DNA of 9,892 bases. Source: a virus (taxonomy: Duplodnaviria > Heunggongvirae > Uroviricota > Caudoviricetes). The DNA lies in the IMG/VR virus record IMGVR_UViG_2579779077_000004; one strand, written 5' to 3'. Under the pieces are notes generated by a model. That model was not told the DNA's origin and made no database searches. It saw only the letters and a program-made list of their open reading frames with translations. The translations under genes were made by a program, and so were the position numbers. Each line of letters starts with the position of its first letter. Position 1 is the first letter of the stretch. Positions 2-1,677 of the stretch are shown here, piece after piece.

Positions 2-88
2 CATAACGTGCCCACCAGCAGGGAGAAAGCACGCGCCAATATTCAGAAGATGAAAAACATGATTAACGGATTCAGGGGCAAGAAATGA
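2..88 (+). CDS. Possible 3' end of an upstream gene running off the window edge (…VPTSREKARANIQKMKNMINGFRGKK*)
   Basis: Frame 2 is open from the window edge to TGA at 86-88, which overlaps the ATG at 85 in an ATGA arrangement. No start is visible and no family is recognised. Confidence 0.2.
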   Translation, partial: HNVPTSREKARANIQKMKNMINGFRGKK

Positions 89-1482
89 AAAGCGCACCGA
101 ACTTAAAAAAACAGCCTTACGACAAGATGACCGAAGTCATCATTTTTGCGGGTAGTGATGCGTGGGCACATGCGAAACAGTGGCAGGAACAGGACGGGCG
201 ACTGGCTGGCGATAATGTGCCTCCCATTGTGCTGGCTGATGATCAACTGGATGAACTGGCAGACCTGAGAATCATCGACGAGGGGCGCTATTGTGTCCGG
301 CTGTACAAGGCAGGCCACATCAGGCCATCAAATATTAATGCCATTGCGCACAAGCTGGCGGCGGCGGGCGTAACTGATGCGAATTATTACCCCGAAGGGA
401 TACACAGCCAGAAGCGGGAGAACTGGCGCGAATATCTGGAACGGGAGCTGGGGAAAAAGCCAGGGGAAGAACACCACCAGCGAAAAACCACGCTACCGAT
501 GAGCGTTGGATCTGCCGGATACGACACGCAATTAGATTACGTGGTAAAGGGGATTATTCCGGCATCGTCGCTATGCAGCATATACGGGGCAAGCGGTTCC
601 TATAAATCATTCCTTGCCGGATCGTTGGCGTGTCACGTTTCCACGGGCCGCCAGTGGGGAGGCCGCAGGGTGGCGCATGGCGCTGTTCTCTATGTGGTTG
701 GTGAAGGCGGTATCGGCGTTCCGCGTCGTGTAAAAGCCTGGGAGGTTGTGCACGGTGAGCAGGTGAAAAATCTGTATCTGGTAAACCGTCCCATATTTCC
801 GGCGGTCCCGCTTGATGTTGATGAAATGGTTATCGCTGCCCGTCAGGTGGAGCGGGAAACGGGTAAACCTGTACGCATGATTATTCTTGATACTCTGGCG
901 CGTTGCTTTGGTGGCAATGATGAAAATGATTCCCGTGATATGGGGGCGTTTATCCGTGGGTGTGACGAGCTTAAACGGCGCACAGGGGCCACGGTGCTGG
1001 TGGTTCACCATTCCGGCAAGGATGAGACGAAAGGCGCGCGTGGTTCCAGTGCATTTCGTGCTTCGCTGGATGCTGAATACCGGATACGCAGGGAGGACGC
1101 AGGAAGCGAAGCGCTGGTTATCTCATGCACCAAAATGAAGGACGCGGAGGAACTCAAAGAGGCTGCCTATGACTTACGCGTGGTGGAGCTGTTTACCGAC
1201 GCTGACGGGGAGTTAATCACGTCGCTGGTGGTGGTGGATAAGCCGCGTCCTCCCGTTGAACTGGAGCGCATCGAGGAGGCAGGCAACAAGACGGAAAACC
1301 ATACCGCACTATGGGGGTGCATCCGGTCACGCACACAGCACGGCGACAAGTGCACGATCCCGCTGTTACGTGATGACATGAAAAAACTGGGGTATGAAAT
1401 GAAAAACTTCCGGCGCTGGCTGTACAAGCTGGAAAAAGATGGGGTTATTCGTATCGATGGGGATGATGTAGCGCCGCTATAA
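85..1482 (+). CDS. Replication initiator / helicase-like protein: RecA-fold ATPase (AAA_25/RepA-DnaB-like) with an unassigned N-terminal domain and a probable C-terminal winged-helix DNA-binding domain
   Basis: 465-aa ORF with AGGGG about 8 nt upstream of the ATG. P-loop-like motif GASGSYKS, Walker-B-like hydrophobic stretch ending in D (VRMIILDTLAR), and the RecA/DnaB-like motif LVVHHSGKDETKG. The C-terminal 70 aa (…MKKLGYEMKNFRRWLYKLEKDGVIRIDG…) looks like a winged helix. An iteron array follows immediately downstream. Confidence 0.8.
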   Translation: MKSAPNLKKQPYDKMTEVIIFAGSDAWAHAKQWQEQDGRLAGDNVPPIVLADDQLDELADLRIIDEGRYCVRLYKAGHIRPSNINAIAHKLAAAGVTDANYYPEGIHSQKRENWREYLERELGKKPGEEHHQRKTTLPMSVGSAGYDTQLDYVVKGIIPASSLCSIYGASGSYKSFLAGSLACHVSTGRQWGGRRVAHGAVLYVVGEGGIGVPRRVKAWEVVHGEQVKNLYLVNRPIFPAVPLDVDEMVIAARQVERETGKPVRMIILDTLARCFGGNDENDSRDMGAFIRGCDELKRRTGATVLVVHHSGKDETKGARGSSAFRASLDAEYRIRREDAGSEALVISCTKMKDAEELKEAAYDLRVVELFTDADGELITSLVVVDKPRPPVELERIEEAGNKTENHTALWGCIRSRTQHGDKCTIPLLRDDMKKLGYEMKNFRRWLYKLEKDGVIRIDGDDVAPL

Positions 1483-1677
1483 AAGTGAGGAGCAAAAGCG
1501 AGGGGGGTAGAAAGAGGGCCAAAATTAGCCTGCTCTCCCTCACTTTTCGACCTGTATACATCCTCAAAAGTGAGGGGTAAAAAAATACTTATGAAACACA
1601 CACATAGAAAAACCAAAAATCCCAACTGCGACGAAGTGAGACGCTTGAAAAAGTGAGGCGAAAAAGTGAGAGGTTGC
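1482..1677. repeat. Iteron array, putative origin of replication
   Basis: Direct copies of AAAGTGAG(G/A) at 1482-1490, 1566-1576, 1649-1658 and 1661-1673; degenerate copies at 1494-1503 (AAAGCGAGG), 1511-1519 (AAAGAGGGC) and 1633-1641 (GAAGTGAGA); one inverted copy at 1537-1547 (CCCTCACTTTT). An AT-rich stretch sits between them at 1578-1620. The array lies directly 3' of the rep gene. Confidence 0.6.

Follow-up and report, generated by a model that had tools for sequence, protein, structure and literature searches.

The classical iteron plasmids (pPS10, F, R6K and RK2) use Rep_3 initiators of the WH1-WH2 type that are not helicases and that recruit DnaA and DnaB, and their iterons, about 17–22 bp long and set in regular phase, have DnaA boxes adjacent to them. 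RSF1010 divides iteron binding (RepC), helicase (RepA, a 5′-3′ enzyme) and primase (RepB′) among different proteins, and it has 20-mer iterons and the priming sites ssiA and ssiB. The α protein of satellite phage P4 joins a primase and an SF3-type helicase to a C-terminal winged helix that binds short repeats at the origin, and it needs a distant second site, crr. P4 has been compared with the PICIs (PMC6092414), whose capsid-forming members have EcCIEDL933 as their prototype (bioRxiv 10.1101/2022.09.08.507074). The Rep proteins of the SaPIs are self-loading helicases that bind iterons with a C-terminal winged helix (PMC9371898). In the case of EcCICFT073, a rep-ori segment maintained a thermosensitive plasmid, and maintenance fell upon loss of either rep or ori (PMC6092414). 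This is the sole experimentally tested origin of the Gram-negative PICI comparison, and the origin proposed here is predicted from sequence.

We analysed a stretch of viral DNA of 9,892 nucleotides (the window), in which a block of short repeats lies directly 3′ of a gene for a helicase-type initiator. Our reading, to which we give a probability of roughly 85%, is that positions 1481–1682 are the replication origin of an EcCIEDL933-like capsid-forming PICI (cf-PICI). A preliminary description of the same DNA had proposed a likely origin at this place, and the layout of the block, the PICI precedent, the covariation of the repeats with Rep and the lack of a second array all argue for that proposal. 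A literature search that took in cf-PICI papers turned up no written account of the origin proposed here, although it may be among those drawn in Fig. 2a of PMC6092414.

The host element and its initiator

Analysis of open reading frames and Pfam domains gave a set of genes on a single strand, comprising a 465-aa AAA_25 protein (85–1482), an SSB, an HK97-type capsid protein, a prohead protease, a portal protein and a large terminase. The segment 1300–1800 matched 992 complete E. coli genomes, with 99.2% identity to STEC2017-197 and 96.4% to O157:H7 strains, and a search of a phage collection gave no DNA match. The element in STEC2017-197 is bounded by roxA and phoQ and runs from integrase to terL, its genes being ordered int, HTH, icd-like, DUF4222, 'helicase RepA family protein', small ORF, ssb, perC, capsid, protease, portal, connectors, HNH, terS and terL. 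Locus L001 shows the near-identical island in the same roxA-phoQ setting, beginning at int, finishing at terL and encoding capsid, portal, protease, HNH and terminase proteins. The HTH protein of the island is alpA-like, and the features expected of a PICI as host element (int, alpA, unidirectional genes, a length of about 15 kb and an att site of its own) are all found. Judged by this gene set the window is an E. coli cf-PICI, an EcCIEDL933-like phage satellite. The proposed origin would thereby mark that of the prototype lineage of the cf-PICI family (O157:H7 O-island 51 type).

The rep gene (85–1482, + strand) encodes a 465-aa initiator-helicase made up of an N-domain (aa 1–124), a RepA/RecA-type helicase core (about aa 146–385) and a C-terminal winged helix (aa 394–465, encoded by 1264–1479 on the + strand). 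The N-domain is 63% identical over 124 aa to the Pri-Rep of EcCICFT073, and the core has a RecA fold resembling that of RSF1010 RepA. The C-terminal domain, which had been called winged-helix-like from the letters of the DNA, does adopt this fold, and it is nearest to the origin-binding domains of Orc/Cdc6. Its recognition helix spans aa 442–451 and is N-capped by Asn441 (codon AAC, 1405–1407, + strand), a candidate determinant of base 5 of the iteron (GTG-A-G). Pfam recognised only AAA_25 in Rep, and a match to RepB_primase_C was not significant (E 0.19). The full-length AF2 model of Rep reached a pLDDT of 65, with residues 310–393 below 50, and because of this mediocre quality it was used for domain topology only. 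The next ORF downstream (1683–1934, + strand; 83 aa; PHROG match phrog_1231) is annotated in relatives and forms the right edge of the rep-ori cassette.

The repeat array downstream of rep

The motif AAAGTGAGR has five exact matches in the 9.9-kb window, at 1482, 1567, 1650 and 1663 on the + strand and at 1538–1546 on the − strand, and all five lie within 190 bp (1482–1671). In dinucleotide-preserving shuffles the motif occurred 0.10 times on average and twice at most, and five copies were reached in 0 of 200. The six best sites of the window in a position-weight matrix scan also fall in this block, which contains two copies with one mismatch as well (1495, AAAGCGAGG; 1633, GAAGTGAGA). Alignment with relatives revealed further, decayed slots at 1511–1518, 1548–1553 (− strand), 1624–1632 and 1673–1681, giving a total of about 12 repeat slots, about five of them decayed in the window. 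The preliminary description had counted at least four good direct copies and one inverted copy, and the exact matches given here are four direct and one inverted. Its degenerate copies, about three by its count, are also present, but the slots are more numerous than it had supposed. It placed the last two copies 12 bp apart, about one helical turn; the distance is in fact 13 bp from start to start (1650 to 1663), and spacing by a helical turn does not hold, since repeat units of 9–11 bp follow each other at irregular intervals of 11, 13 and 17 bp. An equivalent repeat set elsewhere in the element that supported replication had been named as one observation that would speak against an origin here, and an island-wide search for the motif gave no further copy and no equivalent set outside the array.

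The array occupies the entire 200-bp gap from rep to the next ORF. At its left end is a set of direct iterons (1481–1518, + strand), whose slots we defined against aligned relatives that retain three intact copies: L1 (1481–1490, AAAAGTGAGG), L2 (1494–1503, AAAAGCGAGG) and the decayed L3 (1511–1518, AAAGAGGG). L1 overlaps the stop codon of rep (1480–1482), as had been noticed before. A short spacer separates the left direct set from the inverted iterons (1537–1553, − strand), of which I1 (1537–1547, AAAAGTGAGGG on the − strand) is perfect and I2 (1548–1553) is decayed here and intact in L002–L005. Together with the direct iteron D1 (1566–1576, + strand, AAAAGTGAGGG), I1 forms a perfect 11-nt inverted repeat, and a box at 1553–1560 (TGTATACA) contains a GTATAC palindrome (1554–1559) placed exactly on the dyad axis of the inverted pair (1556/1557). 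The folding energy of I1/D1 as single-stranded DNA is −9.6 kcal/mol (z −5.3). With no T run behind it, this inverted repeat does not qualify as an intrinsic terminator, and a terminator scan of 1300–1800 picked up a single weak minus-strand hit, no better than chance.

Next to D1 lies an A/T-rich tract (1577–1623), A-rich on the top strand, that we consider a putative DNA-unwinding element. The AT-rich stretch pointed out in the preliminary description (1578–1620) is indeed 79% A+T and lies among the copies, and 1578–1618 is the least stable 40-bp duplex in the window (z 3.6). A comparable gap is found at the same position in relatives. Both arms of the inverted repeat are to the left of this tract, not one on each side. 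The right set of direct iterons (1624–1681, + strand) consists of R1 (1624–1632, decayed), R2 (1633–1641, GAAGTGAGA), R3 (1649–1659), R4 (1662–1672) and R5 (1673–1681, decayed). R4 contains GAGAGG (1668–1673), the Shine-Dalgarno-like sequence of the next ORF, whose ATG is at 1683, so that the array overlaps a ribosome-binding region as had been described.

Other kinds of element were sought in and around the block. An Rfam scan of 1300–1900 gave only a non-significant match to SprD (E 0.67; 16 bits against a gathering score of 100), and an RNA element was rejected. Scans for DnaA boxes (with up to one mismatch), IHF sites, GATC and oriC 13-mers were unconvincing, and a DnaA-dependent origin, whether of the oriC or the plasmid type, was likewise set aside.

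Repeat core and recognition helix in relatives

The comparison drew on a close set of four E. coli relatives, with Reps 89–98% identical and alignable through the whole spacer, and on a wide set of eighty further loci from contigs of one genome per species, with Rep identities of 51–73% (Xenorhabdus, Pantoea, Pectobacterium, Serratia, Kosakonia, Morganella and others). The layout is kept in about 85 relatives across Enterobacterales, Klebsiella included, over Rep identities of 51–98%, and the number of slots differs among them. Irrespective of the iteron core, 68 of 74 relatives combine the inverted iteron, the TATA-like box and the direct iteron, and 46 of those 68 have them at identical spacing. 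A second, separate cluster of the same repeats lies further downstream in L090, L091 and L093. One K. pneumoniae member of the rep-ori family, which has the same rep-ori architecture with TGCGGCA repeats and a Ser-type helix, was deposited as a closed circle of 16,971 bp without any other typed replicon; this speaks indirectly for an origin, although it could be an excised, non-replicating circle caught by assembly.

Across about 79 loci the repeat core tracks the residue that precedes the conserved F-x-R-W-L motif of the winged helix, with Asn accompanying GTGAG, His or Lys accompanying GTGGG, and Ser or Gly accompanying GTGCG. Expressed as copies per 262 nt, TGAG occurs 9.5–11.5 times with KN[FM] and TGGG 10–13 times with KH[FL] or 7.4 times with KKF, and TGCG occurs 8–12 times with KSF or KGF; control segments within rep showed no comparable repeat enrichment. 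GTGGG replaces GTGAG in every copy of L003 and L004, the inverted ones included. Particularly informative are the E. coli loci L090/L091 and L003, whose Reps are identical over the last 66 aa save for Asn versus His and whose arrays are of the GTGAG and GTGGG kind, respectively. The DNA encoding the C-terminal domain is nearly identical in these loci and divergence sets in abruptly from the stop codon, which makes it unlikely that the codon merely hitch-hiked in a large recombination tract. A second and a third pair (L095/L096 and L097/L098) agree with the correspondence of residue and core. The exception is L097 itself, where an Asn-type Rep is found with a hybrid array (GTGAG on the left, GTGGG on the right), and the match between residue and core therefore need not be strict. 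Physical linkage contributes to the association, the recognition-helix codon being only about 75 nt from the array, and independent switches are few: no fewer than two, one inside the E. coli lineage and another separating deeper lineages.

The preliminary description had proposed looking for conservation of the repeat unit in relatives whose Rep C-termini covary with it; what these loci share is the layout, and the core follows the recognition-helix residue. From this pattern, the repeat that Rep reads appears to be set by a single initiator residue. If such a switch is real, it would create orthogonal replicon specificities, and related satellites could coexist. The correspondence between Asn/His and A/G bears in this way on the evolution of initiator specificity and on the replicon compatibility of co-resident satellites.

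In satellites where a primase-family rep takes this slot, the repeats are unrelated (GGTAGAG or GGTAGAC), and homology between the window and these different-rep satellites restarts at about 1672–1676, the right end of the array. An identical DUF4222 protein (WP_000770163.1) is found with two unrelated iteron types, the 83-aa ORF and ssb have about 87–90% DNA identity in satellites with unrelated iterons, and the Rep N-domain is common to EcCICFT073, whose iterons differ (GGTAGA type). Because each of these three accompanies unrelated repeats, they were excluded as the source of repeat specificity, and the exchangeable unit comprises the helicase core, the winged helix and the array, roughly 457–1672 of the window.

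Proposed origin function and known systems

A plausible course of initiation can be proposed from these features. After induction by a helper phage and excision, the Rep of the island would recognise the AAAGTGAG(G/A) repeats via its C-terminal winged helix, with Asn441 at the start of the recognition helix reading the fifth base of the GTGAG core. Rep units would assemble on two sets, the left one made of three direct iterons and the inverted pair round the GTATAC dyad and the right one of five direct iterons, and the inverted pair would fix two Rep units in opposite orientation. The two sets flank the A/T-rich tract 1577–1623, the easiest DNA of the window to melt, and once this AT-rich DNA had melted, the RepA/DnaB-like ring of the helicase core would load itself on the opened strands without DnaA or DnaC. 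What the analysis shows directly is the sequence architecture, the folds and the covariation of core and initiator; Rep binding, melting, helicase self-loading and the identity of the AT-rich element that opens first are what we infer. The slot counts are suggestive of two hexamers on six plus six slots, but because these counts vary among relatives we do not claim this arrangement. A joint reading that goes further strikes us as possible but doubtful. It holds that a switch of the N-cap residue (Asn441 versus His, Lys or Ser) re-targets a self-loading SF4-type helicase-initiator from GTGAG to GTGGG or GTGCG, and that a head-to-head double hexamer nucleates, and melting begins, at the inverted iteron–GTATAC–direct iteron unit, which is invariant and of fixed spacing, and not at the long A/T tract. 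If nucleation did occur at the dyad, the block would be the bacterial equivalent of the origins used by large T in SV40 and by E1 in papillomaviruses.

The repeats might instead be Rep-binding sites with a mainly regulatory role, acting as a roadblock or operator that limits read-through to ssb and the morphogenesis genes, or controlling copy number by handcuffing. The array does form part of a unidirectional operon, the last repeats span the Shine-Dalgarno-like sequence of the next ORF and adjoin its ATG in both the window and relatives, and the second downstream cluster in L090, L091 and L093 recalls the control iterons of plasmids. However, a promoter scan of 1300–1800 gave no promoter-like (sigma-70-like) site, the AT-rich minimum, the inverted pair with its fixed dyad and the flanking sets amount to an origin architecture that would be superfluous for an operator, and the island offers no other candidate origin. 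Regulation would in any case add to origin function rather than exclude it; the array may double as an operator, as the preliminary description suggested, but a mainly regulatory role is unlikely. Occupation of the repeats by some protein besides Rep (the AlpA-like HTH, PerC, DUF4222, the 83-aa ORF product or a host factor), with a role in transcription control or DNA bending, is very unlikely. Several small genes of DNA-binding type do lie nearby, and the iteron-independent TATA-like box and a CATTACTGG element in relatives are sub-elements that do not track Rep, but the core follows one winged-helix residue of Rep, DUF4222 and the 83-aa ORF with ssb are shared by satellites with unrelated iterons as set out above, and no DnaA-box or IHF consensus is present.

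A function of the block as the packaging site (cos/pac) of the satellite, or as a recombination site, would suit an island whose DNA is packaged by HNH, TerS and TerL proteins that it encodes itself, and bends combined with repeats are often seen at pac and cos sites. Yet the HNH-terS-terL genes are 6 kb away, the block covaries with Rep, and the same type of array is retained despite other packaging modules (L003 and L004 have another capsid or terS, and L005 has none nearby), which leaves this explanation highly improbable. Finally, short purine-rich words recur easily in an A-rich intergenic spacer, and the top strand here is 40% A; an artefact of chance or composition is nevertheless scarcely credible given the result of the shuffles, the slot-by-slot conservation and the concerted change across genera.

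A replication origin remains the preferred reading, and every computable feature of a PICI-type origin is found: a position 3′ of rep, two sets (1481–1576 and 1624–1681) flanking an AT-rich region, some opposed iterons, repeats specific to the Rep allele (as judged by comparison of sequences only), a winged-helix Rep and a PICI as host. The satellite precedent invoked in the preliminary description, iterons just downstream of their own rep gene, has its published counterpart in PICI origins, where iteron sets flank an AT-rich region directly 3′ of rep (PMC6092414; PMC9371898). The nearest case is EcCICFT073 (Fillol-Salom et al. 2018, ISME J, PMC6092414), a member of the same island family with the same roxA-phoQ attachment region, whose origin occupies the same slot, from rep to the small ORF and ssb, and has two sets of short iterons round a central region; the N-terminal domain of Rep is shared as well. 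Its Rep, however, is a 584-aa 'DNA primase family' protein where the window encodes a RepA-type helicase joined to a winged helix, its repeats belong to the GGTAGA type, and its central region has CTGAAAGCCGCGCCATTACTGG where the window has an A-rich tract. Because helicase, DNA-binding module and iterons are all different, the precedent is positional and architectural, not homologous.

The SaPI origins (Ubeda et al. 2007 and 2012), as far as they are summarised in PMC9371898, also lie directly 3′ of rep and consist of 6–12 short iterons in two sets round an AT-rich region, some of them opposed. Their initiators, too, are helicases with a C-terminal winged-helix iteron binder and allele-specific specificity, although in that summary (PMC9371898) SaPI Reps are AAA+/SF3-like and 3′-5′, whereas the core here is RecA-fold and RSF1010-RepA-like. 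Since the helicase cores differ in type, this likeness is one of logic and not of motor homology. P4 resembles the present element as a satellite of enterobacterial phages in which a single polypeptide combines the replication enzyme with a C-terminal winged-helix origin binder, and differs in its requirement for crr, no second site having been found in this island.

With RSF1010 (IncQ) the relationship lies in the motor: the helicase core is homologous to RSF1010 RepA, a hexameric helicase of the same type, and both origins combine iterons and AT-rich DNA without relying on DnaA boxes. Here, by contrast, the iteron-binding winged helix is fused to the helicase, the repeats are 9–11 bp and not 20 bp, and no RepC or RepB gene is annotated in the island. 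The classical iteron plasmids share with this block the action of winged-helix initiators on direct iterons beside an AT-rich unwinding element, but here there is no Rep_3 domain, there are no DnaA boxes, and units of 9–11 bp recur at spacings of 11–17 bp. The block is therefore no classical Rep_3 origin, and of the IncQ features compared here (RepA-type helicase, separate RepC and RepB′, 20-bp iterons) it has the helicase homology. It is very probably a PICI-type origin, an expected feature built like other satellite origins. What it adds is not a new class of system; it is a residue-to-base correspondence in specificity together with a conserved dyad. That the PICI origin layout is retained despite a helicase motor of another superfamily points to convergence on one logic of initiation.

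A TATA-like box and variant iteron arrays

Halfway between the inverted iteron and the next direct iteron lies a box of the form (T/C)(G/A)TATA(T/C)A, which is present in 68 of the 74 relatives whatever the iteron core and which maps to positions 1553-1560 of the window and to about 65-85 nt past the rep stop codon in relatives L002-L087. The dyad axis of the window's inverted iteron pair falls exactly on a GTATAC palindrome. The TATA-like box does not track Rep specificity, and for that reason might serve either to nucleate melting or to bind a host factor.

The spacer is longer in L090, L091 and L093, where a ProQ-like gene comes after rep, and approximately 270-400 nt past the rep stop codon these repeats form another, separate cluster. 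An inverted pair and a TATATA box belong to this cluster too, which may represent either a control locus or a duplication of the origin. An E. albertii contig (L097) carries a hybrid iteron array at 2357-2573, beside a Rep of the Asn type. Copies with the GTGAG core make up its left half and one right-hand position, while the other right-hand copies are GTGGG and match His-type elements in sequence. This arrangement suggests a recombination breakpoint within the origin and some degree of tolerance of mismatched repeats.

Variation in gene content and form

Between the 83-aa ORF and ssb the window encodes a 101-aa ORF (1931-2236; phrog_27268, function unknown) that is found in the same place in L002. 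The 99%-identical island of STEC2017-197 (L001) lacks this ORF, and ssb directly follows the 83-aa ORF. K. pneumoniae pKp_Goe_795-4 (CP018459.1; L099) was deposited as a circular plasmid of 16,971 bp; its genes include an integrase, a DNA-binding protein, a RepA-type rep with origin, capsid, adaptor and terminase, together with a gene annotated as tape measure. Despite that label, the whole record is a cf-PICI-like element, in all likelihood a satellite that has been excised or is maintained as an episome.

Mosaic rep genes and comparison with EcCICFT073

The N-terminal domain of Rep (aa 1-124; window 85-456) shows similarity over part of the 'DNA primase' family phrog_864 (E 1e-12), has no Pfam family, and adopts an alpha/beta fold in the AF2 model. 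It is 63% identical to its counterpart in the 'DNA primase family' Pri-Rep of EcCICFT073, a protein otherwise unrelated to the window Rep. The rep genes of this group of satellites are therefore mosaics, in which the N-domain is common to all while the helicase, the DNA-binding domain and the origin attached to it can be exchanged.

The central region of many relatives contains, about 100-110 nt past the rep stop codon, the element CTGAAA(G/C)CCnnG(C/T)CATTACTGG (L006, 2836-2866; L007, 2868-2898; also L032, L033, L037, L040-L042, L079, L083, L094 and L099), and among them iteron class does not determine its presence. May it act as a priming signal, or as a host-factor site? The experimentally tested origin of EcCICFT073 (L089) has this element (approximately 10175-10205) despite an unrelated initiator module, whereas the window has an A-rich tract in that place.
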